From Haplodiscus bocki (Eukaryota): a stretch of 64,000 nucleotides of DNA. Made by a program: the position numbers and the translations under genes. Numbering within the stretch: position 1 is the stretch's first letter; the number at the start of each line of letters is the position of its first letter. Location of the stretch: the NCBI GenBank assembly GCA_965655095.1, contig OZ296657.1:78740001-78804000 (forward strand). Reading direction: 5' to 3'. Under the pieces are notes generated by a model. The model made no database searches. It was not told the origin of the DNA and saw only the letters and a list, made by a program, of their open reading frames with translations. Positions 15,601-55,207 of this stretch are shown here, piece after piece.

Positions 15601-16192
15601 GCTAGAAAAAGTTTCTCCCGCACTTTTCTTTAAAAAGGCAAAATCGTCGATTGAAACCTTGTCTATAGGAACCAACCCTCTAGTCCGTGAATTCGAAAAT
15701 CGATGTGAAGCAATATCAATAGCACATTTCTGAATCTTTAGATTATTACACTGATTGACAAAGGACCAAAAAACATGATTTATCAACTGCATTTTTCATT
15801 TCAAATGAAAAGCTTTTGATTGAAACCGTGATGGAAATCAAACCTGTAAAAGTTGGGAAATTTGAACTTGAACATCGAAAGGAGTCATAAAAAGTAGCAC
15901 ATTTAGAACCTTAGTGTCATCAAAATTCGAAGGCAACGAGCAATTTTATTAGCTTCCTAACCAACTTTTTTTGTGCACATGAAAAATTGTCCATTCAGAC
16001 GTTAGTGGAGGATATCAAAACAGTAGCATTCTTGTTATATGGTTTTGAAAATCAACATGAAATAAAAAGAATTAATTTTTCTGGGAATTTCTGGACTATA
16101 ACGACCTTGTTACATAGAACAAAATCAATGACATCCCAATCGAATAGTTCTCCACAAGTAAAAGTTTTTCGATTCAGACCTGTGGCTGAATT

Positions 16193-16308
16193 TAAGACTT
16201 ATGAAGAATAGCCTTCGCTACAACGCAGTAGTGCTGACTGAGTCTACCCCCAGCACACAACACAATCGAATAAGCAATACATTTTCAAAACCCCCACTAC
16301 GTGCGACA
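16193..16308 (+). repeat. Element A 5' LTR (only the 3'-terminal ~115 bp is present)
   Basis: Roughly 85% identical to 31647-31760; ends ...GTGCGACA, 3 nt before the PBS. Confidence 0.85.
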
Positions 16309-19088: not shown

Positions 19089-22000
19089 GGTGTCCGAGCT
19101 CAACCACTGATCAGTCCAAAAATTCAAGACTCAGTTTCAACTTTTTCTACTTCGCCACCGGAGCACTCAAACAGATAGTGGCTCACAAATTGAATTCATG
19201 TTACATACTAGAGTTTCCAGCTCAATCATAAACTATCGAACCTTTTGGGAAGTCTGCCAAACTCGGCACCCAATCACTGCTAAAAGAAGCACCACACAAA
19301 CAAAGACTTACTTTGGTCAAGTTGTGCCCATGATTGGATTTGTAACATTAACTTTCAGTTACGACACGGATGGACAGTTTTCTTTCCCTTTAACCCTCTG
19401 GTCTACCGAAATGAAAACTCAAAACCATCTAGGTCTTTTGTCACAAGCAAGTGTCTGGCATTCACTTTGATCTACGCGGAACTGAACTTAAAGAGCCACC
19501 AAATACTGTGTGTTATCGAAGCCTTCATCAGAACAAATCTTGCTATTTTTTTCGGAAAATCTAACAAAAAGAACTCCACATGCGATGCACATTGAAGCGT
19601 TTTCTCCTGAAGATCCCCACGGTCATTTTACTCCTGGATCAACTTTTCACCCAGAAAGCAATGCTGTTGCTACGGCACTAACATTTGTCAATGTGTTATG
19701 TACTCAATCAGAATCAAAACTGCCTATACTAACGGAAAATAACAATAACCACCAAATTATTTCACCGAAGGGCCGTATTGGGTTTTCATCATTAGATATC
19801 TCCAACAACATTGAACCAAAGTACAAAAAACGAGACCGTTATGAGCTAAGAAACGCAATCTTCCCAACAAACGAACAGCATAACAATTGTTTTCTACTCC
19901 ACTTAAAAATTCCTTCTCAGTCACGTGACGAGTTTTGCAAATAGACTATGGTATTGAAAGTTCGATCCTTGAACAGCCCAACTCTATCGGACATTGTATC
20001 TCAGCAGACGCTAAGATTAGCAAAGGATTTGAACAGTTCTTATCAGAAAGAAGTCCGCAAGTAAGGAGAGTATGCAGACGAGCCAATATTATGAAGGACC
20101 AAGTATTCCCCATCTGGGATTTTTCATCAAGACGGTGTAACTATAACCTTGTCACAGAGGAGAAGCATTCAGATAAGCCTAACCTGCAAACTCTCGCTAC
20201 AACATTGCAAAATATGCAAGCCCACGCTACCCTGCATGGAATTTCAACAATCACCATACAAAAAATTGGACTTGGACTTGACCAGATGAACTGGCAAGAA
20301 GTAGTAAAACTCCTACGAAATGCTTCTGCTTATTAAGATTTACAAATTGTGGTCTACTCATTGAACGAACACGCAATTCACGCTATGTCCCCGAAGGAGA
20401 TCCGGAATTCTATGCCAAAGATGAAAGAGATCGATATAGTGACGAATTCCATTTGAACGAGAGAGAACTGGAAACCGATTCCACTAGTGACGCTAAGTCC
20501 GGTCAACCAGTCTGCGACGAATAATTTCCCGTTTTACGCCAGAAAGAACAAAACAAATCACTCATTGAGCACTATCCTCAATATCAGCCCAAAGAGTTAG
20601 CTTATTATATCAAACAGTTCGATTTCCAATATTCATACATAACTGACAGTGAAATGATCCTACTCATTGAAATGCTAACCGACTCAAAAGATGTAAATTC
20701 CTTCCACAAATTCGGTGTTGGGAAAACCCGACAAAAACTTCACGTTACACTAAAACCAAATGTGGAACTGGAACGCCAACGAGCAAACAAAGTGCCGCTA
20801 CACCTGAAAGACAAACTCGAGAAGTTGTCCGTAAGGTGACAACATATGGATGCCGTTATCATTCGAGAAAAAGGCGATGATGACAAGATGGGTCCTCTCT
20901 TTGTTAACCCATTAGTCCTCTTGCCAAAGAATAACTACGTTAAACTAGTGACTCATGCTCACTACTTGAACTCAGTGACCAACCTCACAAGATAATCCTG
21001 GCCGTTAGAACCAGTTTAGATGATTATGAGCAGAGTGAACGGAAAGTTCTTTTTAGTCAATGACATGTCCTGTGCATACCATCAAGTACCTCTTAGCTTC
21101 GAAACACAGAAATTGACAAACTTCATCATCGGTGGACAACAACATACTTTCACCCGAGGATTCTACGGTCTGTGTGGCCTACCCAACTTCTTCAATCGCT
21201 TAATGACGATTCATTTCGACCCACTGATCAGGAAAAAACAGGCAATTACATATATCGACGACACCATCATGCAATCGCAAACCAGAGGCGAGATGTTCAC
21301 CATCATCAATGAGTATCACCCCCTTCTGCGGAAGGCTGGGTTAAAACCTGCCACCGACAAAACTTTTTTCTATCTAAAGAAAGTAAAGTTCTTGGGACAC
21401 CTTATCTCACCGGATGGGAATCAACTGAAAGCAAAGCGTGTGGACGCCTTGAGGAACCTCAAGTCACCACAGAGTAAGCAAACGTTATGAAATACTTAGG
21501 ATGACTTGGATTCTACAGCTGCTATATCAAGAACCTACACATTGATATTCAGCCCATTTATGACTTAATTAAAGACTCTACAACATTTCACTGGACCAAA
21601 AACCATGAAAAATTGTCCAACTCCTTTAAAGAACGAATTCACAAAGATTCAATCCTGGCAGTTCCTTCTACTGATTACCCTGTTCATTTTCATGTGGACT
21701 CTTCCAATGTTGGTACAGGTTGTGTTCTCATCCAACAGTTCCCTGAAGGCAAGCGAATTTTTTCGTTTAACTCTTGTTTCTTCGACAAAGCGGAACAAAA
21801 AAATGTCCACCCTCCATCGAAATATATGCGGAACCGTATCAGTTCTTCAGACATACGAATACTACATCATCCGATCACCGTTTCCCGTCTATATCTATTG
21901 TGAGCACAAACCAATTCTTTATTTATGGGGAGGCAAAGGACAACTCTCACATCGTTTCTTCCGATATCAGATGAGCATTACGAAGTTCCAGAACTTGAAG

Positions 22001-28066: not shown

Positions 28067-29284
28067 ATGGATGCAACCACTTCTCAAGATGAAACTGAAC
28101 CTAATGGTCAAGCCAAATGCCCCAAAACTTCCTCGGATTCCAGGAGCCCCCCAGTTTTGGAGCAACTTCATCTACTGACCACTCAAACTGACCACCTCAG
28201 AAAAACCTCAGAACAAGCACTGGAACAAACAAAGCCCCTAATTCAAACATTCCCGCTGGCCAACATGAAGCAGTTCTAATATCTTCACTCCGTTCAACAC
28301 CAAGTAGCTCAATTTTTTGTAGATCTCAATATCGAGAAACGCAAACGCTTCAAACAACACGCAGGTATTCGCCAGCTCGAAGATGGGCTAGCCCAAATGC
28401 GTCGGGAGGTCAGTGAACTCTCACCTCCTTCATTTCTTGTTCCTTTTACAGTCAATCCACCGTATTCTACTGGTTTCCAAGACAATTGTGCCCTAAACAA
28501 GGCCCAAATACCAAAGCCTTCGATAACATTAACTCTTTAAAGAGCCTCCAGCACTACATTCAAATCATGGCTACCTGATCAACCACGAGGTCCACCACCA
28601 ACCATACCAACTTCCAGACATTCTTTCTTGGACTTAGACGCCCGAGCAAAACATCTGGAAGAAGAAATTACAAAGGCAAGGAACTGTCGCGAAACAATTA
28701 TATCCATCTACCGATCCCAATTTACCTTTCTCTATGACAGATTCCAAGCCCTTGAGTCTGGAGGCCCAGACACTAACCTGTGGAAATTAACTTCACTGAT
28801 ATTGGATTTCGACACCGCCAAATCTGCTACCCGACTGGACGATGCTGCCAAAATCCCCAATACTCATTATAATAGCCCTGTGTACCGCACACACCCTCAA
28901 GGCTTTAACTTTTTTATTCAATTTTACCCATATGGTTTGGACTCTGCCTTAGGAAATCACGCCTCAGTTATTTTCGCCTTTTGCCCCGGCGACTACGAAG
29001 CTTTATTGACATGGCCGTTCCCAAAAACAAGTCATCTTTCAGTTCTCGATCAACTCGACCCCGAAAATAAGTGGACCCTTACCTTTGCACCCTCAGGGAA
29101 AATATTCTCTCGAAGGCCTACCCGAGAACCGTGTCCTACCCTGACGAGTTTCATTTTCTTCCCACACAGCAGGATGTTCAGCATGACGGAAAACTTCCAT
29201 TTAATACATACTTTATATTTGAAGATGAAAATCACCGACCTGCCCGACCCTGCAGGAGCCACACCTTCCTCATTCCCAACATGA
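28067..29284 (+). pseudogene. Element A accessory gene: coiled coil + TRAF-C (MATH) domain, no RING; two in-frame stops
   Basis: LWKLTS...YNSPVYRTHPQGFNFFIQFYPYGLDSALGNHASVIF...GDYEALLTWPF...LSVLDQ is the TRAF MATH signature. ORFs 28055-28279 and 28628-29284 share a frame. Confidence 0.85.
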
Positions 29285-29896: not shown

Positions 29897-30095
29897 AACA
29901 AGCACCATCGCAGCAACCAGTATCCATCTATCTACCAGCACCCCGGCAACAACCATCAGTATCCCAGCCGCAACCAGCAAACATCCATCAATCGGTATCC
30001 CAGCAACAACCAGCAGTATCCCGGCCGCAACCAGCAATCATCAAGCAAGCAGTATCCCAGCCGCAAACAGCAATCAACCAGCCGCAACTAGTATC
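29897..30095 (+). repeat. Degenerate ~21-bp CAGCAACAACCAGCAGTATCC-type tandem repeat
   Basis: Recurrent ccgcaaccagca / agtatccc units. Confidence 0.75.
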
Positions 30096-30099
30096 CATT

Positions 30100-30302
30100 G
30101 AGCAGCAGTCCAACATCAAGTAGCTTCAGTACAGCAGCGGTCCCACAACAAATAGCTTCAATACTGCATCTGTCCCACAACAGGTACCTTCAATACAGCA
30201 GCGGTCCCACAACAGGTAGCTTCTATACAGCAGCGGTCCCACAACAAGTAGATTCAATACAGCAGCGTTCCCACAACAAGTAGCTTCAATACGGCAGCGT
30301 CC
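30100..30302 (+). repeat. 32-bp minisatellite, 6 full copies plus a partial copy
   Basis: Unit CAGCAGCGGTCCCACAACAAGTAGCTTCAATA, starting at 30100, 30132, 30164, 30196, 30228 and 30260. Confidence 0.95.
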
Positions 30303-32576
30303 TAGCAGCAACCAGTTATCATCCGGCAAGAAGCGTCTGCGCGACTAAAGCCCGCCTCTGTTAGTTATCATTACGTTTCCTAGTAGAGGACATCTCGTTA
30401 GTGGTTGACCTAGGATTAACTGTCCGGCAGCAGGGTGTACGTTACCGCACAGTGTTTTTTTTACTAAAACTTTGATTAATTGGTAAAAGTAAAACACATA
30501 TAATAAACACGACCAGTTGAGAGTCCTTAAGACTAATGACCTGGTCGCAGACGAAAGATAAAATTGAATTACTGGTGTCCTGTAAGTCCAGATGCAGATG
30601 GTATCTCCCGGCAGGTGACTAAATACCAGCCTTAAGATTAAGTCCGACGAGCGAGTGTTTCATCATAGCACGAAGGTTTTTTTATACTAAGAATAGTCTA
30701 AAATGCATGTAATTAAAATGCATGTACTTTAAAATCCCTTTCCTGTAAGCCTGATGGCATCTCCAGCTTGGACTGAAGCAGCGACTAGGAGGCTAACTTG
30801 TTGGCCTTGTATTTCAAGTCCAGTGCAAGCATGGTTTAGCTAAACGTGAAACAAACTGTAAAACGAACTGGCTAAAAAAGCCGACTAGACAAGACGGAAA
30901 TTACGTCACCCGCACTAGTCAAAAAGTTAAAAGGTGTATGTTTTTGCTTCATTTACAGATGTTCCAGTTCTGACAGCAGCTATCGTGGATCAGTTGAATC
31001 ATAACATTTCAAAATTTTTTAATTTTATTTGAACTAATTTTAAAGAGTCCGTTCTTTCTATCAATGATTTTATAAAATTTTCTTTCAATTGAATTCAATA
31101 AGTTCAACTTTTGTAATTATTTTTAAAATTGCAGTTCGGACTAAATTAAACTAGTCTGAATTGGTGTTACTGAATATATACTTTCAGCTCTAATTTTAAA
31201 CAAGTTTATTTTCACCTGCTTTATAAGCTTTATAACTTCAATCAATTGGCGGCATCCCCTTCCAAGCCTGCTGCTAACACTAAACCTCCTTGTTGAATAA
31301 ATTGCGGCTCTTAGTTTTTTTGTTAAATTAATGTTGGCTGACTTTTAATCAACTTGCTAATGGCTAATGTTGTTGAAATAAAGAAAGAGAAGAATTGACT
31401 ATACTTTGTGAAGTATAAAGACCATTTGGCAATCTCCCGTGTAATATTCCATGCTTAAAGCCTCTGACAGAGCTGAGTAATTCCCCCTTGCATACGTGTG
31501 GTCACATTCCTTTCAGCAGTTCAACATTTTGAAATACCTTCACTGACAAATAAACTTTACTTTGTATTATTTTCCTCTGTAGCTCATATGTCCTTGCTTG
31601 AATTCACGCAATCCCTTTGTTCGCGCGGTTAAGCAAGGCACACTATTGAGACTTATAAAGAATAGCCGTCGCTACAATGCTGTAGTGCTGACTGAGTCAA
31701 CCCCCAGCAAGACACAACTGAATAAATAATACACTTCCAATACCCCCACTACGTGCGATACCTTCTTCAACCTATCTTGATTCACGAGTGCTATGAAAAA
31801 AATAATATTCCCAATTCAACAAAAATTGTACAAGTCAATTGATTGAGACCGTCAGGCACAAAATACTGGCTCTAGTCACGGCAAGAAAAAACAAATTTCC
31901 TGCAGCGGCAAATCCTAACTAGTCAGATATTCGGCACGTTCAGGTTAAAAAACAGCGTCGAAAGTTGCGTTGATTTTGCCCTAGGCTTAATAAACTGACC
32001 GTTGGGACCAATGACCTTTGGTTTCGGCTTCAGTTTAATGGTTACTTGTGTGCGCAATTTTCTTCCGTAACACTCTTTAGACAGCCTTCGATTTTAGAGC
32101 TGGGAAGTATACATTTTGTGACAGTTACTGCAGTTATACACACTTCGAAAACGATGCTGTCGTCTAATTTACCTTCCAGCCGACAAAAAAACTTCAAACG
32201 TTTGGATTGGTCTTTAGGCCGACCCTTTGCAGTATGATTGTATTATTTAATTTTGGGCAAGCTGTTCTAGCGAAAGTGATTGTTTTCTGCGCCTATGAAT
32301 GTTGACTTGACATCAATGCGATTCCTGTATTATACCCAGTAGAAATTGATTACTCTTTCAGTTGACCATTTACTATTGTGGTCTAGTTAACCTACGGATG
32401 TCAACTGATCTGATCTTATCTCTCTCTTTTTTTAGTGGATTTTGTAGTTGTAATTCTCCTGGTTTTTTCCCCGGGTTTCTTTTTTCACTTCGAAAAGTTT
32501 TCTACAATACTAACAGCATCAATTCAAGCAGAGCTTTCTGTGTTGGTTTGTTTGTCCCGTTTTCTCGAGAAGCGGA

Positions 32577-35453
32577 ATGTTCTGGAAGTGTATTGCATTT
32601 TTGTCCGCCTTGTTTTCCAAAGTTCGTGGCGCTCAAATCCTTCAAATGAACGTCAGAAGCCTAGTGAACTTTGATCGAAGAGCCAAATTAGCAAATGCAA
32701 TCACCTCCAATAACTATAACATTATATGTCTCTGTGAAACTTGGCTTAACGTTAACATTGCCTCCAGTGAGCTCTTACTTGACGGCTATGACATCTTCAG
32801 AGCAGACCGTAAAGCACTTCATGATCAAAACCCCCATGGAGGGTCATTGATTGCTGTCAAAAACAACTTTGCCGCCGAGGAAGTCCACAACCCGAACATG
32901 CCCGACAGCAGTATTGCGTGCAAGATCACAATCTGTGATGTAACCATAATTATATGTGTATTCTACAACCCCCCAGCTTCGAGTAAATACCGATATGAAC
33001 TAGCCGACTTCATAAATCTACTTAATTTCTTCCCCAAAACCTCCCAATTAGTTATCTGTGGAGATATAAACTTCCCAGAAACGAACTGGAGTTCCTTAAC
33101 CAGTCTCTCTGACTACGAACAACAAGTTCTCGACGAATTCGAGGATCGTTGCCTTCTACAAGCCATTGATTTCAAAACGTGTGGCCAAAACATTCTGGAC
33201 GTCGCCTTCTATTCAAATTGTCATATACACGCCAAGCGAGATGATTCCTTCGAGAATATATACGACTGTTCAGACCACCACGCCATCCTGCTACAGTTGG
33301 AATGTGCACTCTATGAAAAGAAACCGACCCTGGAAAGATGTCGAAGCTTCGGAAGCGGTGACTATGATGCTATGAACGAAGCAATGCGCTCCGCGCCTTT
33401 TGACTCTATCTGTCACACCAATATTGACAAAATGACGGAAGAACTATACAAGTACTTTGATTCCATAATCGAAAGACACGTTCCAAGACGCACCTTCCAC
33501 AGGCAGCAACTACCACCCTGGATTACTCGCAGTACCTCGCATTTGATCAAGCAACTTGGTACACAAAAACGTTTGCTCAGCCGCAAACCGACCTCGTATC
33601 GAAAAACAGCAGTAACTAATCTGGAAAATATAGTGTTCTCCGCATGTGAAACAGATAGAAAAAACTATCAAGAGGAACTGATGGGTTCGCGAAACACAGA
33701 TGGAATATTCAAGCATTTGAAGAGTCTCAAAAAATCGATTTCCCTCCCCAACGAAATGACCGATGGGAAAAGTACCGTGACAGCGCCCGTTGACAAAATC
33801 AACTTGCTGAACAACTTTTTCCAATCAGTCTTCTCCTCCAAACAAGTGTTCACACACGCCGATATCAAGGCCGAACAAAGCATTCTGACAAATTTCAATG
33901 TCTCCAAAAGTAAAATCAGGAAAATTCTTTCGTCCTTAGATGTCACAAAAACAAGAGGACCAAATGGCCTACCACCCATCTTCTTCAACAAAACCGCTCT
34001 TGAAATAACTCCAGCCCTACACAAACTCCTGCGCAATATCAAACGTCTCGGCAAGCTTCCCGCGACATGGAAAACTGCTGCCGTCTCACCCATATTCAAG
34101 AAAGGAGACCGAAGGTCAGTCGAAAACTGGCGACCTATCTCCTTACTGAATATAGATAGCAAGGTGCTTGAGAAGTGCATGTATGAACCCCTCTACAACC
34201 ACTTTGGGCAGTTTCTGACCCATAGTCAACATGGATTCACGAGAGGAAGATCCGTCATGACGAACATGTTACTCTTCCTGAACAAAATACATAAGGCCCT
34301 TGACAACAACAGTCAGGATGATGTAGTAGCCTTCTATACTGACTTCTCGAAGGCATTCGACAAAGTCCCTCACTTTGAACTACTGCAAAAAGTAGCGAAC
34401 ACCGGAGTTGGAGGATGTTTCCTTGAGGTACTTGTTGACTACCTGAAAGATCGAAAACAGTATGTGAGAGTTGACAACCAAAGGTCCATAACCTTACCTG
34501 TCAACAGTGGCGTCCCTCAAGGGTCCCTTCTCGGGCCTTTACTCTTTTGCATTTTCATCAATGACCTCCCTGACCGCCTCAAATTCAGTGAGCCCTATAT
34601 CTTCGCCGAAGATCTCAAAATACTTGCAATAAAGCCTGACTCTATTTCTCTCCAAAGAGACTTGAGAGCAATCGAAAGTTGGGTAAACGAGAACAAAATG
34701 AGCCTAGCAATGGACAAATGTGCCAAACTCACTTTTCGAGGCATAAACAAGAACTTCAAATTGATGGGATCAGTGCTTGAATCTTCAAGCGAAGTCAAGG
34801 ATCTGGGTGTAATGATAGACCAAAAACTGAGCTCAACTAGACATGTCGATGTCAGACTGGCGAAAGCCAGAAACGCCCTTTATTACGTCAGGCGAAATGT
34901 CGCTTATCAGATCAGCCGCCAGGTCAAACTTGGTCTGTATAAATCGTTAATTCTCCCGATACTGACCTACGGATTTCACTGCTACAGCCCTAACAGGACG
35001 GACCTAAACAGGCTTGAACGTTTCCAGCGGAAAGCCATCAAATGGATAATGGGCAATCAGTCTGACGATTACAAACGTCAACTCAGTACTCTCAATCTCC
35101 TCCCACTGCCCATGTTTTTGCAAGTTAATGACTTACTCCTGTTCTCCTCCCTGTGTAATGAACAACATGAGATGATACCCCCTAGAGTTCCACCAAACAG
35201 GCGAACACGCACACTCTTCGAAACAGGTGGAGCCCGAACGGAGAAAGCGAGATCGGAATTCTTCTTCAGAAATAGCCGATTAGCGAACAGACTTAACTTG
35301 TATATCATCTTTGACGAAAAGGCTGGACTCAAAAGTAGGATTCTGAGAACAATGAAAGCGATATTTGAAGAAAGGTTCTCATTCCAAAATGTCTGTACTT
35401 GGCAGGCAGCCTGTGACTGTCACCAGTGCAGAGACTTGTGGACAACAATCTAG
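32577..35453 (+). CDS. LINE (CR1/L2/jockey group) ORF2: APE endonuclease + reverse transcriptase, 958 aa open frame
   Basis: APE motifs QMNVRSL, LCETWL, GDINFP, SDHH; RT motifs WRPISLL, QHGF, YTDFSKAFDKVPH, GVPQGSLLGPLLF, FAEDLK, KDLGV. Confidence 0.95.
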   Translation: MFWKCIAFLSALFSKVRGAQILQMNVRSLVNFDRRAKLANAITSNNYNIICLCETWLNVNIASSELLLDGYDIFRADRKALHDQNPHGGSLIAVKNNFAAEEVHNPNMPDSSIACKITICDVTIIICVFYNPPASSKYRYELADFINLLNFFPKTSQLVICGDINFPETNWSSLTSLSDYEQQVLDEFEDRCLLQAIDFKTCGQNILDVAFYSNCHIHAKRDDSFENIYDCSDHHAILLQLECALYEKKPTLERCRSFGSGDYDAMNEAMRSAPFDSICHTNIDKMTEELYKYFDSIIERHVPRRTFHRQQLPPWITRSTSHLIKQLGTQKRLLSRKPTSYRKTAVTNLENIVFSACETDRKNYQEELMGSRNTDGIFKHLKSLKKSISLPNEMTDGKSTVTAPVDKINLLNNFFQSVFSSKQVFTHADIKAEQSILTNFNVSKSKIRKILSSLDVTKTRGPNGLPPIFFNKTALEITPALHKLLRNIKRLGKLPATWKTAAVSPIFKKGDRRSVENWRPISLLNIDSKVLEKCMYEPLYNHFGQFLTHSQHGFTRGRSVMTNMLLFLNKIHKALDNNSQDDVVAFYTDFSKAFDKVPHFELLQKVANTGVGGCFLEVLVDYLKDRKQYVRVDNQRSITLPVNSGVPQGSLLGPLLFCIFINDLPDRLKFSEPYIFAEDLKILAIKPDSISLQRDLRAIESWVNENKMSLAMDKCAKLTFRGINKNFKLMGSVLESSSEVKDLGVMIDQKLSSTRHVDVRLAKARNALYYVRRNVAYQISRQVKLGLYKSLILPILTYGFHCYSPNRTDLNRLERFQRKAIKWIMGNQSDDYKRQLSTLNLLPLPMFLQVNDLLLFSSLCNEQHEMIPPRVPPNRRTRTLFETGGARTEKARSEFFFRNSRLANRLNLYIIFDEKAGLKSRILRTMKAIFEERFSFQNVCTWQAACDCHQCRDLWTTI

Positions 35454-43210: not shown

Positions 43211-43675
43211 AATACCAGTCGACATTAATAATGGTGCAGTATAAATTTGGTGCATCTCAGCGTTTAAATAAATTAGTTTCAAATTTTCTCGTGCAAGAAA
43301 TATGTGTTTGATTCATTTTTTTGCCTGAGATCCTGCGATCATTCTTTCTGGCGTGTGTCCTTGCGACAGAATGTTCATGATGATTATAATATGTCCTCTA
43401 TCAAAAGTAAATCTTATAAATTAGGGAAACGAAACGAAAGATTTTTCTGAACGTTTTCGAGCCTTCTAGATCAGTAGAGTATTTAAGGAATTCGAAAACA
43501 GCAAATTGTTTAGATATACCACCTGCCATGTACTGATAGTTTTATCAGTATTATTTGAGAACAGTAAACCTCCGAATCGACCTCCGAATCCGTCGAACCT
43601 TTAAACTATCAAATAATCACCTTTAAATCATCAATAATTTTTTTCATATTACTACACTTGCACAGGCAAATGTTA

Positions 43676-44316
43676 TATAACAATTGCTTGTTTTCGTTCT
43701 TTTGATTCTATTTTGAATAGCTATCGAAATGCGCGGGCGATTGTTGGGGTTTTAAAGTTGCTATCTCTTGGCGTTGAAAAGGGGGATATCTCTATTGAAA
43801 AACAAATTTGCAAAAAGAAGAAACGGCTTTAATTAGTTTTAGTTATAGTTAAACAGAATTTTTACATTCTGTGCAAGACAATTTATCAGACAAGATAGAA
43901 TGAGAAAAATTACTCGACTTACATTTCAGTGGTTGAGGGTGGGTCTGAATAGCTGAGTTTTTACTTTTTCGATATTTATTTCTGCAGCTGCAAGTTGCGA
44001 GTCAGGTGAAGAGCAGATGTAAACAGTCAAAATAAAACAATAATAGCTCATGAAAAGTAATATTTAAAATAAAGCAACAATAGATTTAAACAAAATTCAC
44101 ATTTGCACTTTCAATATGCAGGTGAAATTAATAAATATTAAAGCGCTAAGCACAAAGACATATGAACGTGTTTATATTTTTAACGGTTATAAAATAACAC
44201 AAGAAAGAAATTGCAGCAGTCTTTTTTATTGTATATGTAGCTGAGTCTTTCCCTTTTTTTGAAAAAGACATTAAAAAAGATATTAGTCATCGATTTCTTT
44301 TCTCCGCTCCGTTATA
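43676..44316 (-). repeat. Element B 3' LTR
   Basis: Direct repeat of 54498-55140; termini TATAAC...GTTATA. Confidence 0.95.
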
Positions 44317-44328
44317 CTACCCCAGCCC
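44317..44328 (-). promoter_or_regulatory. Element B polypurine tract
   Basis: Minus strand GGGCTGGGGTAG abutting the 3' LTR. Confidence 0.75.
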
Positions 44329-44343
44329 ATGTAGATTGTGTCC

Positions 44344-44884
44344 TCACAAGGTAACTGTCGCGGTGTAGGCTATGACGGAGGGGTTGCAGACCATGCAGGT
44401 TTGAAGTCGTTGAGCGCGCCGGGCGCCGTCCACACCGCAGCAGTTGTAGACTTGGCGCAGATGTCGGTTTAGGAGGATAGTTTTGGCTTCTTGAACAAGG
44501 GGGACAAGTGGGGCTGTGCTGGTGGGTGCGCTGGGATTTTTGTCCGGATGAATTAATAGAAGAATGTGACGGGCGTGCGAGTTAAGAGTGTCAGCTGAGG
44601 CAGTTGGTGAGCAGCATAAAAGGTCATATAACATGGGACTCTGGTGCAAAGTCGAGGGTCGTTGCGTATGTAGACAGTTGATGGAGTAACATTTCCTTAT
44701 ATGCCTCATGGACTTGGGGATTTACTGCAGCGGCCTTAAAAGAAGACACTTGTTCAGTTAACTCGAAAGTACGAGCAAGCAAGCTGGAGTTTTTTTCATT
44801 CAGAGCAGTTAAACGTTGATTTAAAGCAGTAATTTTAGTTTCTTTCTCTCGCAGTTCTTGCACGGTTTCCCCGAGAACCAACAC
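44344..44884 (-). pseudogene. Element B accessory gene: coiled coil + DnaJ (J) domain, one frameshift
   Basis: LYDLLCCSPTASADTL...LLLIHPDKNP...VQEAKTILLNRHLRQVYNCCG is a J-domain with intact HPD. Removing 1 nt near 44635 joins it to coiled-coil ORF 44624-44884. Confidence 0.85.
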
Positions 44885-45646
44885 CGAGAAGTGTTCTTAG
44901 CGGCCGCGTGGGCTTTTTCAAAGCCTTTTTGGAGGCACTGCACTGCAAATTACGTCACCAGAAGCTCCATGGCCTGTTCTGCGTCCATGGATGCTTCGGC
45001 AGCTACATCAAAGGTGTCGGGGAGGACAGGAGGTGGTAAAGGAGGGAAGCACAGACAATTTTCAGTGGGCTCGTTGACATTCACACTGATGGAGAGGGAA
45101 GTGGGAGGAGGAGCTGGTTAGCTGCGCGAACAAAAGGGCGGTTCTGGGGAGCGTTGATTTTCTTGAGAGTGACATTTTGGGATGTCGTGTTGATTCGAAT
45201 AACACGATACTCGAAAGGATCTAGCAGTCGTGCGAGATGTCCAGGAGCCAAGTCCGCGACGCGGCCAGAGCAGGTGACGAAAGGGGCAGCGCGGAAAGAA
45301 ACAGCTGAAGAGAGCCTGAAACAGAAAAAAATTGATTGACTTTTGTTACGATTTAAAATGACAGACTGTACAAGACAACATGCAAACAACAGCAGGGATG
45401 GGGCACGGGAATGTGTCCAAAGGCCCCGATTCAGGAAACTCAAACAGTAGGGAGGATCTTAGGCGATAAGTGGCACCGTACGGAAACGCACGTTGAAAGA
45501 CACTAGCAAAGCTAGGTGAAAACATGAACAGGGTTGAGAAAGTAGCACGGAAACGTGCTTAAAGACACCAAAAGTTGGGAAAATTAGTGTATGAGCATGA
45601 GTTATGTTGTTGGAGGAAATTGTACGGACACGTACAAAAAAAGACA

Positions 45647-47394
45647 TCAACCGAAGTTGAGTAAAAGCGTAGGCGAGCTAAAAATGAAGGATGACATGTG
45701 TAACAGTATGATGAAAGTCGCGGTGCGTGAGATGTGATACATGCCATCCACAAGATAGAAGGCTTGTGGAGCGTCGGGCAGCAGAACTGAAACGACTTGA
45801 CAGTTGCGGAGGGCTGGGATATCGTATTTGTAAATGAGTGAACCCAAACAAAGGAGTGTTTCATCTGTTGTTGTGTAAAAACCTTTCGGCAAAGTTTGAT
45901 TCGATTGTTCCCGGAACACTGTTGCAGTGTTAGCGCTCCAAGCTCAGCAAACCTCGTGTTTTCGGTGGATATTGCGAGAAAAGGATTTGTGAAAATGTAC
46001 AAGGAGGCTTGTTTTCTCGTCTTTATTCGGCTGATATAACGGTGTGGCATGGTATATATCAAATGTTGAAGACTTCGAATTCATTGGTTTGCCCAAAATA
46101 ACGGATATGCCACGAGGAATGAGCGTGACCTCTAGGACAAGTTGTATTTCGTAATATATTGCCTCAAAACCAGGGCGTATTGCCGGTGACAACTTTGTTC
46201 CACGGGCTACTTCGTCATCCGTTAACTGCTTGATAATTTCGGCAATTTGTTGGCGTAACAAAAATTGTGGCGTGATATAGCCACCAGCTAACGACGAGAT
46301 TGTTGAGAAGAGTGAAATGTTGTAGGCAAAAATGCTGCGCGGTATGCTTTCAAATGCGTGTATAGTGTTCCCATTTGGTACACGTAATGCCTGATTGGTT
46401 GCAAAAGGTGCATGTGTCGTACAATGACGTGGTCACATGCGAGGCTAGTACGGGCCAAGAATAGTGTTGCGTTTACGAGGTAGAATTCCATGTGTTTGAA
46501 TCGTACGTCCACTACTTCCTTCAACGTGCGAACACTTTCCTGTGTTCTTTTGATTTCTTTTCCCAGTAGGAAGAAATTCTTATCGTTTCTCGTTTGCACA
46601 CGTTCCAAATTTTTGACAATTGCGTCCTGTGTGCGCATGATGTTGTCCACATCTCGTGACAGAGCATCGTTGTTTTTACAGAGGTTGAATATTGACAGCG
46701 CATTGCATGCAGCATTTTTAATTGGTTCTCCTTGAACTAATCCGGCGCCGGCTGCCACTGCTGCAATCGCTCCAATAGCTCTGCGTGATCGGCCACCCGG
46801 TTGTTGGTCCCTTCGAGCACCGGGCGGAATGAAGGAAATGGCTACGTCGAATAAACTCTTTTTCTCTTCCAACGCTGCCGTCAGCTCATATTCTAAAAAG
46901 CTAACTCTTGTTTCAAGTTGTTGGAGAAGGAGGGCATATGTTTCATTGAAATACATATACTTGCAGTTTTCATTGATGTACATGACAACAATCGAGTCAG
47001 GGGCCCGTTTGAAAGCTTCAACCATGTATCTTGCTTGGGTCAGGTTAATTGCCGGAATCCGAGGGAACGGTGAGAAATTACGGGCTTTACTCTCGCTTTC
47101 GGAGGTAACCGCTTGATATTTGAAAACAAAAGCAGCGCCTTTCTTGAAGACTGGTTTAGCCAAATCATCACCCACATGAGTGGTAAATTGCATCTGGAGC
47201 TTGATTAAGGGCAAGAAGACACTCACTAGTAGAACCGGGGGATTCAGTTGCCTTATTGAAGTGACTCGTTTGGATTTTTGAGAAATCCTGAAACAACAAC
47301 GACGTGGAGGAATTGCGCAGAGATCCTTGAAAGTAAGGAAAATAAAAGGTATATAAATGCGAGCTTGTGTAAAAAAAACAATAAAGAAGTTCAT
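45647..47394 (-). pseudogene. env: Element B envelope, class I fusion protein, frameshifted and apparently C-terminally deleted
   Basis: Furin site RSRR followed by the hydrophobic fusion peptide AIGAIAAVAAGAGLV and heptad repeats; downstream Cys-rich region (LQQCSGNNRIKLC...LLCL...RNC) across ORFs 45944-46261, 45559-46062 and 45647-45919. Confidence 0.85.
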
Positions 47395-47407
47395 CGAACC
47401 TCTTGGT

Positions 47408-50400
47408 TCAACGTTGTGGCTGTGTTTTGCCCGAACGATTGGGGGAATTGAAATCAGTAAGATTTGTCGGCAAGTTTGACATAAATAAGGGTTGTGCTGG
47501 ACGCTGTTGCATCGTCGATGCTCTCAATGTTCGATGTTCCTGTGGCGTTTGTGAAGCAACGCGAAGCTTTGCGGTGGCTTGATCAATGATTTTTCGTTTG
47601 CGAGAACGTCCACCAGGTCGACTTGTCGGAGTACTTGGGGAAAACGTTTTGTTTGACAGTCTTTGAGAAACAGGTGAGCTGGAAAGAATATTAGTTCGGT
47701 TTTTGGTTGTTGAAGTCGACGTTGGTGTGATTGTGGTGCTTTGTTCTGAGTTTTGGGCGTACGGGACTGTCGAAGCAGGTGTGTGCGGGACTGTGACTGT
47801 CCCCATCGGGGGTGTTGCTATTGCAGGTGTAGGACATGGTATTGGGAGGTTGCTACCTGAGAAAGTCTTTGCTATGGAAGGCGAAAATTGTTGAGGTGTT
47901 GGTAAAGATGGCCACTCGGTGTAGTAGGTATGATCGATATCATTTCGAGGAGTTGAAGACCTAAGCGTCCGATTTCGAGTTGGTACATTAGAAGTTGAAG
48001 TCACAATTTCAGGAGTTGTTTCTCTGGTCGGGATGTTCGTAGTGGGGGGCTTCCTTCGGAATGGTTTCAAACGGTCGTAATGTAACATGGATTCTTTTCC
48101 TGTACTGACTTCTTTGATTCGATAGTTCACGTCATTCAAGCCTTTCAGTATAGTGTAAGGACCACGCCATGGGCTAAAAAAACTTGGGGCTTCGGCCAAC
48201 CGGTACCACTGGCGTATGTAAAAGCACTTCTTGTCCGTCTCGGTGGGTGGGGCCTTGTACCTTGTGAATATATATGGCGTTACGCCGTCGCTGATTCTTG
48301 TTAAGATTGTCGTGGACCAACGCAAATGCTCGCTGAAAAGCTTGTTTTCTCTGATGGACAAACTCATGAACATTAGTTGGACAATCGGATTCTGGGCTCG
48401 GAAACATGAGATCCAAAGGTATTGAAGTTTCTCGACCGTGCACCAATAATTGTGGGGTGTATCCCGTGGATTCATGCACAGACGATCGATATGCCATCAT
48501 CACGTAAGGGAGTTGTTGTGACCAGTTGTTTTGGTCTGCGTTTATGCACTTCGCGAGCATATTTTGGAGGGTGCGGTTCATACGCTCAATGACCGCATTA
48601 GACTGAGGATGGAAGGCGGTCGTACCAGACTTGTCTATCTCAAGGAGAGAAAGTAGGTTCTTGAAAAGTCGAGATTCAAACTTGCGTCCTTGGTCACTGT
48701 ATGCTATGTGGACAACCGAAGCGACTAATCTAATGTTCTATCAATGCAGTGGCAGTTGTTGATGCCCTCTGGTCCGGTAGTGGTACAGCTTCATACCATT
48801 TACTGAAGTGGTCGCCAATCAAGCGGATTACTTTGTGTCCGTTGGATTCCGGTAACGGTCCCATGAAGCCAATGCCAATGTGGCGGAAAGGATAGCTAGC
48901 TTCCCAATCTACAAGAGCATGGCGATGTGTTTTTGGTGGGTTACTTTGGTGGGTTACTTCGTGTCTGACATTGGGGAGAACGACTGACAAAAAGTTTCTC
49001 ATCTTCTTGGAAACCGGGCCAATAAAATCTTCGTCTAATTTTTTCGGTAACCTTCGCTACACCTAAGTGTCCGCCAGTTGAGGAAGAGTGATTAGATTCC
49101 AAAAGTTACTCTACCATACTCTGAGGAACTATTAGTTGAAAAGAAACACGACCGTATGTGGGGTCAAATTTACGACAAAGTGCTCCGTCTGATATACAAA
49201 GACTGCTAAATTGATTATAAAGTTGCCAAGCTAACCGTGGGCTACCCTGGAGGTCGTTGTTTCTTGGTACACGTGACTGTCGAACCCAATCTTTGACCAA
49301 CTTCAATGATTCGTCTCTATCTTGCGCAAGTCGGATACTTATGGTGAACGAGGGGTTGGCATGATCAGTCACACTGTTATTGGAGGCTTCTTTTAACTCC
49401 GTGGAGTCCAACATATACACTGTGAGACGTATTTGCGATGTTGCGAACTCCTCCTTTAACATTATGCGGACTAGGTGCCATTCTAGTTGGTCGATACCAC
49501 AACCAAGTTTGGGCATACTGACTGCTTTGACATCATTGTCTTCTGCATGACGTCGAAGGGCCACTAGAGACGTTCGCAAGGAGCAATATGTTGGTTTGTC
49601 GAAAACTCGAACTTTGGTTAGAAGATGGTAGATGTATCGTTGACTTGACTCCAGAAATTGTGGGCAAAGTGATTTTTGATGCAGAGTGTCAAGTTTCAGG
49701 TAGTTTGTCGGATACTTTCGTCGAAAAGTACGGGCGATTCCAGCACTCATCTTGTAGTCCGAGGAGACACAGTGAGCGAGAGAAACGCTGGAGCTGAAGA
49801 TATCGCCAACTTTTTCATGGTACTCGAAGGTTTGAACTTCAGTGTTCGGATTAGCCAAGGAAGACGGATTCGGTGGCTGTGGAACTGGATGAGGGGTAGT
49901 AAGGACTTCAGTTGTTAGGGTCAATTCCTGGTTTGGCATTAGGCCATTCATCTTCCACTGTTGGCTTGACTTCTGAAAGATCAACCACTTTGGGATCGTG
50001 GTGAATTATCTGCACTTTAGCTTGAGGAATGCGGGACAACCCATCGGCATGTCCAATTGATTTTCCCGGTTTGTGTCGGACCTCGTAATCGAAGGCGGCC
50101 AATTTCTCGAGCCACTTTGCTGGTAATCCGTCAGGGCCTTTGAAGTTGTGGAGCCACTGAAGTGCTCGGTGATCCGTAACGATGGTAAACTTGCGACCCA
50201 AAAGATAATGTCGAAAATGGCGTGTGAAGTGGACAATTGCTAAAAGCTCCCGCTTGGTTGCAGAATATCGGGTTTGAGCTTTCGAGAAAACCTTGGAAGC
50301 GTAGCAAATGGCACGTTCTTTGCCATTTTGAACCTGAGCGAGAACAGCGCCCATTGCAGTCAAGCTTGCGTCTGTGTACAAAATAAAAGGTTCTTTCATT

Positions 50401-52263
50401 GATGGGAAATCTAAAATGGGAGTTGTTAGGAGGCGTGCTTGCGGAATTTCGAAAGCTGTCTGTGCCTCAGGTGTCCAGCTGAAGGAAGGACTGGACTCGA
50501 TTAATTTGTGGAGTGGTCGAGCAATTTCGGCAAAGTTTTCAACATAACGGCGGTAATATGAGCAAAGACCCAGAAACGACTTTACCTCTGTTTGACTGGT
50601 GGGGATGGGGAATTTTTTTACTGCAGCGATTTTTTCGGGATCTACCTGTAGACCATTGGCGCTGAGGACATGTCCCAGAAAGTGGACTTTGGTTTTGAAG
50701 AACTCGCATTTCAAAGATTTATTTTGAGATTTGCTCCACGAAATCGTTGGAGGACGGCTCGGAGTCTTTCTAAATGCCCTTCAGGGGTTGCGGCCAAGAT
50801 AATACAATCGTCCAAGTAAGTAACAGTGGTCGTCCATGTCAGACCTACCAGGACATGTTCCAATAAACTTTGAAAAGTGTTGGGACTTCCCGTGAGACCC
50901 ATAGGCATTCGGAGCCATTTGTAAGAGTCAAAGGGGGTGCTAAACGCTGTGAAGTCTTGACTCTTTTCATCCATTGGTAACTGATGAAAGCCCCAGTACA
51001 TATCAATCGTCGAAAAGAAAGCACTTCCTTCTAACGTGTCGAATATTTCTTCAATTGACGGTATGGGCCAACAGGACTTGATTGTTTGTTGATTCAGTTG
51101 TCTGTATTCTATTACTAATCTCAACTTACCATTTTTCTTTGGGACCAGCATGGCTGGTGCGCTATACGGACTATGACACGGCATTATAAGCTCTTTGTCA
51201 AGAAACGCGTCAATCTTTTCTCTTAGATCTTGCTTGTAGTGGAGAGGTAGTCTTCGATTCGGTAATTTGACGGGCTTTGAACCCGGGTAAAAATCAATCT
51301 TGTGACTTGTGGCATCGCACTTGCCGATGTCCCATTGATTTTTTGAAAAAACATCTGCGAATTCTTGCACAAGTTCAGCGAACTTATGCCTCATTTTGAT
51401 GGGTATCGCCGGACTGATTGAGTTTATAACGTGCTTGAGGTCATACGACTCATCAACTTCATTTGTTTTTGACTTCGGTGGTGCGGAAACTATGTGGTTC
51501 AACGCTTGTTTTGGAAAGATTTCAGAGGTACCCAATGTTGTGTTTTCGTATACCGTAATCACTTCATCCCAGGTTTTTTCAATTGTGACCGTTACATTTT
51601 CTTCTGCGAAGTTTAAAAGGACGCTGGGGACCACGGCGTTTTTCAAAGTACTTATTCGTGCCACCGGCTCAAATAGAGCGGGCATTTCCGTCAATGGTCG
51701 TTGCCATTCTTGTATTCGGGCTGGCAAAATCATGGCATATCCAGCCGGCACGGAGACTGTCACCGTCGCTATCACCCGAAAAACTGTGTTCACTTCGTGA
51801 TTGAATTTACGGTTATACAATGGTACATGATTCTTGGAATCCAAGCGAAGTAGATCTTTGGAAAACAAGGGGTCGCATTTGTTAGTTCTCAAGAAGTCTA
51901 GTCCCACAAGACAATCTGCTTCTGAATCGATGAGCACGTGAAATTCGTGTTCGTAGTGTTTATGACCGATTGTGATCGGTAGGCGAACTGTTTCTCTTGA
52001 AGTAATTGGCAGCTTCTTTGCAGCCACGAGTTTGGTTTTCGTCGCCAAAAGTTTCAATTTACCCCCAATTTTTGAAGCTTATCAAAAACTTTTGAGCTGA
52101 GGCAAGACAGACTTGCTCCACACTCGCAGACTGCTTCGATGGTTTCATCACCGAAAACAGTCATTTTTAGAAACACACTCCCGTGATCAACCACGGAACT
52201 GAGTGTTTGAATTTGTCTGCGCGGCGACCCGTGGGCGTAGACTTTTCTAATTTGAAGAATCAT
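47408..52263 (-). pseudogene. pol: Element B pol: protease, RT, RNase H, macrodomain, integrase; disrupted
   Basis: PR AVCECGASLSCL (like DSGA); RT PYSAPAMLVPKKNG, MPMGL, YLDD; RNase H LYTDAS...TDHRAL...ADGLSR; IN FMGPLP, MNRTL, YRSSVHESTGYTP; WRGPY motif. Confidence 0.95.
49409..49828 (-). CDS. TARG1/OARD1-type macrodomain within element B Pol, between RNase H and integrase
   Basis: GDIFSSSVSLAHCVSSDYKMSAGIARTF...RYIYHLLTK...KPTYCSLRTSL...SMPKLGCGIDQLEW...IRLTVYML is end-to-end similar to OARD1, with no stops. Confidence 0.93.
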
Positions 52264-53408
52264 TTCTTTTGGACCTGCAGTCCCTTCGGAAATGACCGGG
52301 TTTCAGACAATTGAAACAAGCCTTGTGGTCTTTGGAATTATGGTTTGTTCTCTTGCAATGCTTACATGCGCTCTTGTTACTGTCGTGTTCATTTCTCTTC
52401 TTGCGCTGTCTACTTGAGCCATTGTCCCGATTTTGGTTATCGGACCTGCGAAAGTTCGTCCTTTCTCGTTCTTGAGGAGATTGGAACCTAACAGAGCGAG
52501 TGCTACTTCTAGAATCATTGCTCAGTGAACGTGACCGCTTCATGTTCTTATTGTTATTGGAGCCTGGTTGCCTTTGGGTACTTTGCAACTGTGAGTTTTG
52601 CAAACTGTGACTCAACAAGCGAACAATTTCTTCCAAAGGTTTCCTTTGATGTACCCTGTGCTACTCTGTTAACACTTTCTGTTACTGCGGAATTTCCGTT
52701 CTCAATTTCTAAAAATGCGTTGAGCTCCATTGCGGCAGTTGAGGCGTCGTCCGGTGTTTGCGGTTTCGCTTTCGGCAGTTCCCACCGCGGAGTTTTGTCG
52801 CTGAGTCCTTCTACGAACGTGGTCAAGACCATTGGGTCTATCATTCCAGGAAAATCACGATATGCACGCCTAGCAAGGGTGCGGACATCGCAGAGGAACG
52901 CTGCGATATCTTGCTTGGGTTGCTGTTTCGCAGCTTTAAGACGTGCTTTCAAAATGTCGCCATTGGTTGTGTATTTCTGTCGGAACGCCTCAATCAACAG
53001 ATCATCAAAATTTGTCTGTTGTTCGAAAAACAGTGTTGTGAAGAAGTGAAGGGCGTTTTCCTTCAGGCGAAGGACGAAGTAATGCGGTCGGTTGTCATGA
53101 GTGTTGGAGTGCCATCCTGACAAGAGGGCGGCTGTGTTGAACTGTTGTTAATAATCTTCAAAATCGCTTGTGCCTGTGAAAGACTCAGGCATTAGGCATG
53201 AGGGGAGCGGAGTGACGTATGGGAAGCCTCGTCCTCCTTGTGGACTGGCTGGCATTGCAAAGAAATTAGCACCCGTGGTGTTTGAAGTCTGGGTGTTCGT
53301 TATTCCGATGGCTTGGTGATTACTTCCAGCTGAGTTACCTGGATTCTTCTGAGAATGTTTTTGTCCTTGTTGGTTAGTAGGCGTCGTTGGAGGAGACGAG
53401 TTTGACAT
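52247..53408 (-). pseudogene. gag: Element B gag with two zinc knuckles, disrupted
   Basis: MPESFTGTSDFEDY*QQF...LRLKENALHFF...TFVEGL; knuckles CKHCKRTNH and CFNCLKPGHFRRDC. Confidence 0.92.
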
Positions 53409-54478
53409 TTTGCTCCAATTTTTTTTGTTAGAAAAAATTTTAGAGTCGGTTCATTCTTCTTGAGGTGAAGTTTATGGGAGCACACTCAGGAAACCTGAGG
53501 AGGATGGATTTGGCACATGTAGGGAAAGAATTCCAATATGCGAACGCCAAATGTTTGCTAAGTTGGGAAAGAAATGTGCAGACGATGATTTTACACTAGA
53601 AGTTTGAGTGCTGGGAAGAAAGGGGAGTTGAGGTTGTCCAGTTAGATGTTTCCAATGATGCATTGCTTCCAAGCGAAGATGAATACTCATTTGGTGGGGT
53701 GTGAACAAGAAATCTAGTAGTTGCGACAAAGGAATTTTCAAAAATTTTGCTCGGCAGAAGTAACACGGTATAATGTATGTTTCAGGAACGGCATTCGAAA
53801 ACACGGACACAGGGATGCAAAAAGTGAACATTTTTTGTGACTAATATTGTTGTTAAACAGGGGTTTTATCACTTTCTGAGGTTTGAATGCTTTGACAATT
53901 AACGTTTACACGGTTTACTTCGTACGAAAGACCGCAAAGTGCTAAAACGATCATCAGCAGCGCGAAAGTTTGAACGATAATCAAGAAAGTCAAAAAACAG
54001 GTCGAAAACGTCGGTCCGGAACGGGCTTCGTCGTAAAAAGGCGGCGGACCGATCGATCGAGGTTTTTGATGCGGTGAGACGTACAGCGGCAGATGCGAAT
54101 GAAGGTGAGAACACGGCATTTATAAAACTTTACCAAAACGCATCAAGAACCAGAAAAATCAGAAAAAGAAAATTCGTTCTATCTAAGTACTCACGTGCGT
54201 GTCCTATTACTTAGGGGAATGAAGGATACTCGGTCAGCTTTGCCAAGACTCGCATGAATGCGGGAAAATTGCCAAAAACACGCCGAAGCGGTAAGGACAC
54301 AGCAAAAGCTGGAAAACTAGGCACGGACTAGGTCCGGAGAAAGAGATCTTATCGGCATCACTGGAAAACCAAGAACAAGCAAAAGAAAGCTCTACAAGGG
54401 AAAATGGGTCTGGGCCGGACAAATGATTGAAGAACTAAGTGAATTTTACAGTTTTAGAGAGAAATTTTCAACAGAGAC

Positions 54479-54496
54479 ATCCCTCTCCTGTCACCA
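54479..54496 (-). promoter_or_regulatory. Element B primer binding site, tRNA-Leu type
   Basis: Minus strand TGGTGACAGGAGAGGGAT, 1 nt after the LTR; 16/18 match to the complement of the typical animal tRNA-Leu(CAG) 3' end (TGGTGTCAGGAGTGGGAT). Confidence 0.85.
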
Positions 54497-54497
54497 T

Positions 54498-55140
54498 TTT
54501 AACAATCGATTGTTTTCGTTCTTTTAATTTTATTTTGAATAGCTATCGAAATGCGCGGGGCGATTGTTGGGGTTTTGAAGTTGCTATCTCGTGGCGTTGA
54601 AAAGGGGGAGATCTCTTTTGAAAAACAAATTTGCAAAAAGAAGAAACGGCTTAAATTAATTTTAGTTATAAACAGAATTTTTACATTCTGTGCAAGATAT
54701 TTTGTCAGGTAAGATAGAATGAAAAAAAACTATTCGACTTACATTTCAGTGGTTGAGGGTGGGTCTGAATAGCTGAGTTTTTACTTTTTCGATTTTTTTG
54801 TTTCTCTGCAGCTGCAAGTTGCGAGTCAGGTGAAGAGCAGACGTAAACAGTCAAAATAAAACAATAATAGCTCATGAATAGTAATATTTAAAATAAAGCA
54901 ACAATAGAATTAAATAAAATTCACATTTGCACTTTCAATATGCAGGTGAAATTAATAAATATTAAAGCGCTAAGCACAAAGACATATGAACGTGTTTATA
55001 TTTTTAACGGTTATAAAATAACACAAGAAAGAAATTGCAGCAGTCTTTTTTATTGTATATGTAGCTGAGTCTTTCCCTTTTTTTGAAAAAGACATTAAAA
55101 AAGATATGAGTCATCGATTTCTTTTCTCCGTTCCGTTATA
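54498..55140 (-). repeat. Element B 5' LTR
   Basis: Direct repeat of 43676-44316, adjacent to the PBS. Confidence 0.95.
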
Positions 55141-55207
55141 GTTATAACACAGTGATATTAGTTATCGATTTTCCCTTTCTCCGCTCCGTTATAGTTATAA
55201 CACAGTC

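Follow-up and report, generated by a model that had tools for sequence, protein, structure and literature searches.

TARG1-type macrodomains in the polyproteins of Ty3/gypsy retroelements of Haplodiscus bocki

A Ty3/gypsy element with an extra domain in its Pol bridge

The window analysed here, a stretch of 64,000 nucleotides from Haplodiscus bocki, carries on its minus strand an apparently env-bearing Ty3/gypsy LTR element (43676-55140), hereafter element B. Its 3' LTR (43676..44316) and 5' LTR (54498..55140) are 94.3% identical and are flanked by the target-site duplication GTTA (43672-43675 and 55141-55144). A TGG-starting sequence resembling a primer-binding site lies next to the 5' LTR (~54479-54496). 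Paired LTRs, a 4-bp target-site duplication, this primer-site-like sequence and the protease-RT-RNase H-integrase (PR-RT-RH-IN) order of pol assign the element to the Metaviridae. The LTR ends (window 43676, 55140), next to the 4-bp duplications, are non-canonical: they start with TATAAC and end with GTTAAA or GTTATA, compared with the canonical TG...CA.

Between the LTRs we recognized, all on the minus strand, gag remnants with a CCHC knuckle (52247..53450; Retrotrans_gag, E 7e-5), a 5' part of pol with protease, RT and RNase H (49908..52337, the RNase H ORF at 49908-50780), a 3' part of pol (47411..49408) with a short linker and the integrase N-terminal helices, zinc finger, core and C-terminal domain, and env-like remnants in which a basic RSRR site is followed by a hydrophobic stretch (45559..47523). 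Both parts of pol are interrupted in this copy. Sister copies of B have a third, env-like ORF of 690-810 aa; Pfam returned no match for the env of the window copy or of locus L031, and a weak match to Baculo_F (baculovirus F; E 0.001) for that of the B-clade relative L086.

Between RNase H and the integrase zinc finger, the minus strand holds a stop-free frame of 140 aa (49409..49828), which encodes a macrodomain. A plus-strand reading of the same segment was ruled out by the many stops in that frame. Upstream of the macrodomain lies a Pro/Ser/Thr-rich linker (49829..50005, minus strand). In the window copy the frame shifts within this linker, and the macrodomain frame is discontinuous with that of RNase H. 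Against an uninterrupted sister, the window pol aligns in 8 pieces, between which the frame changes, and has up to 4 stops. Owing to this decay, the Pol fusion and the selection acting on it have to be read from the family and its sister copies.

The bridge domain resembles human TARG1

The reading frame, Pfam, matches to sequences of solved structures and a modelled fold identify the domain as a macrodomain of the TARG1/OARD1 type (ALC1-like class). The five top matches among solved structures are human TARG1/C6orf130 (E ~6e-29), with bacterial domains far behind (E 9e-5 or weaker). Pfam calls the segment Macro weakly (E 6e-5); inside Pol, domains of this type score near or under the Pfam cut-off, which makes them easy to miss. 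An AlphaFold model built from a 49-row alignment (pLDDT 93) ranked TARG1 first (TM 0.88, ~40% identity) and DarG second (~20% identity), with viral nsP3 lower. A MacroD-type viral Mac1 identity was rejected on the same ranking, in which nsP3 and coronavirus domains fall below TARG1 and DarG at 13-17% identity.

In the alignment with chain 4j5r, the Lys of the LLTK motif (K72 of the window domain) corresponds to K78 and the Asp of the GCGID motif (D113) to D119. We take these to be K84 and D125 of TARG1, assuming an offset of +6 from a TARG1 length of 152 aa. The corresponding codons lie on the minus strand at 49613..49615 (Lys) and 49490..49492 (Asp); in the alignment of 89 macrodomain matches from the fetched element loci, the Lys is found in 86 and the Asp in all 89. 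Lys84 and residue 125 are the catalytic residues named for TARG1 (PMC7050489). A minimal macro fold closest to TARG1, with equivalents of Lys84 and of the acidic residue 125, places the domain in the TARG1/OARD1 subfamily. Hydrolase activity via a Lys intermediate is its predicted function.

The preliminary description of the locus had proposed a TARG1-like macrodomain at the RNase H-integrase junction, uninterrupted and with the LLTK and GCGID motifs, and our analysis agrees on each of these points, on the minus strand. It had also seen Pro/Ser-rich linkers on both sides, which holds for the N-side only, the C-side being Ser/Thr/Asn-rich instead.

A macrodomain-free sister lineage of family B

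A search of the 1.5-Gb own genome gave 5967 first-look candidates, which are not copy numbers; the 150 that were scored all had E <1e-38. Among the 20 stretches first fetched, sister copies in one frame had the order PR-RT-RH-macro-IN in 15 (family B) and PR-macro-RT in 5 (family A, described below). With LTR identities of 99.2-99.5% in two copies, family B has been active recently. Of the 119 Pols from databases that were listed by similarity of RT-RH, each of the 19 with >=65% identity carries the RH-IN macrodomain. At E 1e-4 it was found in 0 of the 100 listed Pols at <=54% identity, one of which (P0289) gave a weak degenerate match. When the domain alone was the query, word-based searches for homologues had a narrow reach, with 14 and 6 matches.

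The nearest macrodomain-free lineage occurs in the same genome and shares the primer-site sequence of B. In the RT-RH tree, the RT of B stands beside it with support 100/99. Since this sister aligns across the RH-IN junction with a gap at the macrodomain site, the domain is an insertion into the bridge of the B ancestor. The sister lineage, whose LTRs are 99.5% identical, thrives in the same genome, so the macrodomain is not essential. Its env (L072:2734-4245) and that of element A in the window (25971-27224, plus strand) are Monjiviricetes-type fusion glycoproteins, and the env of B is of another type; this distribution indicates env exchange between lineages.

Purifying selection on the domain

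Of 11 B pairs, some of which share members, 9 had unsaturated dS, and in these dN/dS of the domain is 0.05-0.37 with a median of 0.10. In B, RNase H gives 0.06-0.18 by comparison, and the Pol tail 0.29-0.96 (7 pairs). In A and C the domain has 0.04-0.15 and 0.22-0.25, respectively (3 pairs each, again sharing members). The domain is therefore under purifying selection across family B, with dN/dS ~0.1, like RNase H. Between families it evolves faster than RT (dN 0.28-0.39 vs 0.09), which is not itself a sign of positive selection. Within the window's own family we counted variants in 23 of 30 loci, setting aside 7 that had gaps or matched only in part. Non-synonymous and synonymous changes number 10 and 24 among the shared variants, and 80 and 25 among the private ones (Fisher p 2e-6). 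Among 142 columns ranked by conservation, the catalytic Asp is 1st and the Lys 12th. The binding-loop glycines are conserved as well (G123 equivalent in 88/89), and active-site residues are fixed across the four positions that the domain occupies in different elements.

The selection suggested earlier is supported, and the pattern is wider, with four positions rather than two. The intact catalytic residues of the window copy cannot themselves serve as evidence of selection: this copy is decaying, and its domain has 10 non-synonymous private changes vs 1 synonymous, as expected after the death of the element.

Four positions in three RT lineages

In this genome, TARG1-type domains occur at four places in retroelement polyproteins, namely at the end of Gag, between protease and RT, between RNase H and integrase, and after integrase, in three deep RT lineages. 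Type A, another gypsy lineage than B, has the domain between protease and RT. In the window its copy is decayed (19929..20390, plus strand) and has lost the catalytic Lys, which is present in uninterrupted A sisters. As first described, the A and B domains of the window differ in position and are divergent in sequence, being 28% identical over 122 aa. With divergent domains as queries we found type C, where the domain follows integrase at the end of Pol (L051, L053-55, L057, L058, L062 and others), and type D, where it ends Gag (L084:3303-5108, L085 and L099).

In RT-RH trees, A and D are sister lineages (100/100) and C forms a third long branch. An RT clade of B+A+D was rejected (p-AU 0.009), and the RT tree rules out that A and B are connected by a move of the domain inside a single lineage. 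Grouping the RTs of all four types is borderline (p-AU 0.050), with long branches.

Element A has a short terminal repeat pair (16192-16306 / 31646-31758). Between its env and this pair lies an ORF with a TRAF/MATH domain (28541-29284, plus strand), possibly another captured host domain. A 32-nt tandem repeat is found within the element at 30062-30317. The window also contains a non-LTR element with an uninterrupted APE-RT ORF of 979 aa (32514-35453, plus strand).

A profile search of the full library gave 8986 representatives at E <=0.001, and 60 of the best 150 were scanned against Pfam. Retroelement domains were found in 12 of the 60, the macrodomain lying before protease, after protease, at the RH-IN junction or after integrase; in other scanned representatives it is joined to DNA ligase III, PNKP, NADAR, UDG or BRCT domains. 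The domain is present in gypsy Pols of insects and others, among them a sawfly Pol with two macrodomains and a beetle protein. In three insect-type gypsy Pols (P0076, P0078 and P0289), the integrase zinc finger is directly preceded by a macrodomain-like but degenerate segment (iE 3e-19, 3e-6 and 3e-5, respectively), which may be the counterpart of the published 'pseudo' bridge domain discussed below. In the gypsy Pol P0147, the macrodomain is followed by a match to a Tpt1/KptA-like RNA 2'-phosphotransferase (E 3e-6), possibly a putative writer beside an eraser.

Separate acquisitions from host or element sources

The host has at least three TARG1-like loci outside elements, two in tandem on C2 (L059:4844-5827 and 7092-8620) and a partial one on C5 (L071:4903-5262). 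One C2 locus is interrupted by a GT-AG intron of 201 nt; this intron is absent from element copies, as expected from capture of a spliced mRNA. We built a macrodomain tree of 52 rows and 144 columns, in which the bootstrap did not converge, the free search missed better trees and the backbone is weak. In this tree A, B and an insect group are each starred, as are C, D and the spliced host paralogue together (95/82). None of the tested groupings A+B (p-AU 0.55), A+D (p 0.52) and A+B+C+D (p 0.41) was rejected. Despite the C+D+host group, an acquisition by D separate from that by A is thus not established, because A+D stands. A single origin of all 29 element-borne domains was weakly rejected (p-AU 0.039), a result that unlabelled element fragments among the 'other' rows may bias. 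The same kind of test did not reject a group that unites B with the RH-IN domains of insects (p 0.056).

Two database Pols, P0033 and P0026, have a B-like domain behind an unrelated protease, and their elements have no close match in this genome. They group with B (100/99), a position inside or beside B being equally acceptable (p 0.54). Their protease is 22-30% identical to that of B and no nearer to it than to macrodomain-free Pols, a pattern that hints at transfer from element to element.

The macrodomain-free sister of B and the rejected B+A+D clade support several separate acquisition events. The macrodomain tree fails as proof of independent host capture, since it accepts A+B, and transfer between elements fits as well as capture from the host. 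The domain probably came from a spliced mRNA of host TARG1 or from another element. The preliminary description had proposed independent capture or relocation, to be decided by a phylogeny of both domains. Separate acquisition stands on the RT trees and the macrodomain-free sister, relocation within a lineage falls, and independent capture from the host is not demonstrated, as sisterhood of the two domains themselves is not rejected.

What the domain may do for the element

We favour, with moderate confidence, a reading in which the element-borne domain is a TARG1-type eraser that would shield element RNA, cDNA or proteins from marks set by host PARPs. Made as part of Gag or Pol, it would be packaged in the particle, and in B protease would probably leave it on the side of integrase. 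In the 15 B families, a junction-like motif that we defined by eye with the sequences already in view occurs downstream of RNase H in 10 and separates macrodomain from integrase in 0, suggesting that the domain probably travels with integrase; the N-side linker measures 25 to 96 aa across these families. The free choice of position (Gag end, PR-RT, RH-IN or after IN) suggests that presence in the particle outweighs the enzyme partner. There the domain would act like TARG1 and hydrolyse ADP-ribose off Asp/Glu, nucleic-acid ends and T and U bases. TARG1 is described as reversing marks on acidic residues and nucleic-acid ends (PMC7050489), and on DNA thymine and on RNA uracil, the latter made by PARP10; one of three fly paralogues is inactive on U-ADPr (PMC13036486).

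Candidate writers of such marks are host helicase-PARP fusion proteins, which co-occur with the elements in this one genome. Among 26 PARP-domain matches, all six long-frame loci examined are single-frame Upf1/ZNFX1-like helicase-PARP fusions (L102-L107, at G000:C3:80.39M, C5:43.71M, C12:74.38M, C2:27.77M, C12:72.98M and C11:84.96M). A helicase query gave at least nine loci, all adjoining PARP matches. The PARP H and Y motifs are kept in 6/6, and the genes form two subgroups, ~30% identical to each other; L106 has two PARP domains. MOV10, an Upf1-like helicase, and ZAP/PARP13 are reported to restrict retroelements (PMC4982230), and viral Mac1 to reverse host PARP marks (PMC10499221). Erasure as counter-defence is weakened by the thriving macrodomain-free sister and by a helicase-PARP link that consists of co-occurrence in one genome. 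A broader ADP-ribose arms race, in which Upf1/ZNFX1-like helicase-PARPs would mark retroelement RNA or proteins, gypsy elements would repeatedly take up and swap TARG1, and some insect 'pseudo' bridge domains would be decayed captures, is conceivable, and we regard it as doubtful.

The eraser could also serve integration itself, freeing integrase, the cDNA ends or the integration gap of PARP1-type ADP-ribose, with no dedicated role in defence. The probable integrase-side location in B, the domain after integrase in C and the reported removal of PARP1-made DNA marks by TARG1 (PMC11102865) agree with such housekeeping, which is nevertheless unlikely: in D the domain ends Gag, in A it comes ahead of RT, in C a junction-like motif directly upstream of it suggests release from integrase, and the host has TARG1 paralogues of its own. 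Less probable still is a reader that would bind poly-ADP-ribose and thereby anchor the integration complex at open or damaged chromatin, in the manner of the chromodomains of chromoviruses. TARG1 is reported to bind PAR and PARP1 (PMC7050489), the binding-loop glycines are conserved, position C is the integrase C-terminus, and the conserved Lys and Asp would be compatible with binding as well as with catalysis; yet the two catalytic residues rank among the best-conserved columns, and the Gag-end and PR-RT positions are unsuited to a tether. That the domain is by now only a folded spacer or neutral passenger we consider very improbable. The degenerate segments of P0076, P0078 and P0289, which lack the catalytic motifs, agree with such a course, but the low dN/dS and the active-site residues fixed across four positions argue against it in the domains studied here.

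Relation to known macrodomains

Human TARG1/OARD1/C6orf130 (4J5S, 4J5R) shares with the window domain, beyond fold and identity, the K84/D125 pair and a GCG(L/I)D loop. TARG1 is a free cellular enzyme, whereas here an intronless module of predicted activity sits in a retroelement polyprotein with thousands of candidate copies. DarG (5M3E, 5M31, 5M3I) is of the same class, has the catalytic Lys and strips base-linked marks from nucleic acid, but it belongs to a bacterial toxin-antitoxin setting and TARG1 is far closer. The viral Mac1/nsP3 domains of coronaviruses, alphaviruses and hepatitis E virus are likewise polyprotein-borne and hydrolyse ADP-ribose against host PARPs, and so provide a mechanistic model (PMC10499221); they belong to RNA viruses and to another macrodomain class, whereas the present domain is found in a retrotransposon. 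Teleost epsilon-like endogenous retroviruses are reverse-transcribing elements reported to carry macro-domain ORFs (Basta et al. 2009, as cited in PMC4977317). Compared by description only, theirs are additional ORFs in Retroviridae, whereas here the domain is fused in frame to Ty3/gypsy Gag or Pol at four sites.

The 'ancient errantiviruses' (PMC13524379) are env-bearing Ty3/gypsy elements with extra domains in the same RNase H-integrase bridge, described as 'mini' and 'pseudo' RNase H domains. The words 'macro' and 'ADP' occur 0 times in the main text of this 2026 survey, and the matches listed for such terms in its supplement were names of species or elements and letters of sequences. PMC4695847 and two preprints add nothing on the question. 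In the literature covered, to which subscription journals and Repbase notes did not belong, we found no report of a TARG1-type domain in gypsy Gag or Pol; given this scope, and since some such proteins already bear automatic labels in databases, there may be an earlier mention.

The capture of this gene by retroelements is real, selected and recurrent. Captured enzymes reveal the pressure that acts on a parasite, and that retroelements have repeatedly taken up and kept a putative ADP-ribose eraser suggests that ADP-ribosylation serves to control invertebrate LTR elements, alongside piRNA and chromatin silencing. With a defined putative eraser and candidate writers, this can be tested on purified proteins. 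The theme of viral macrodomains is thereby extended to another enzyme class and to transposons.
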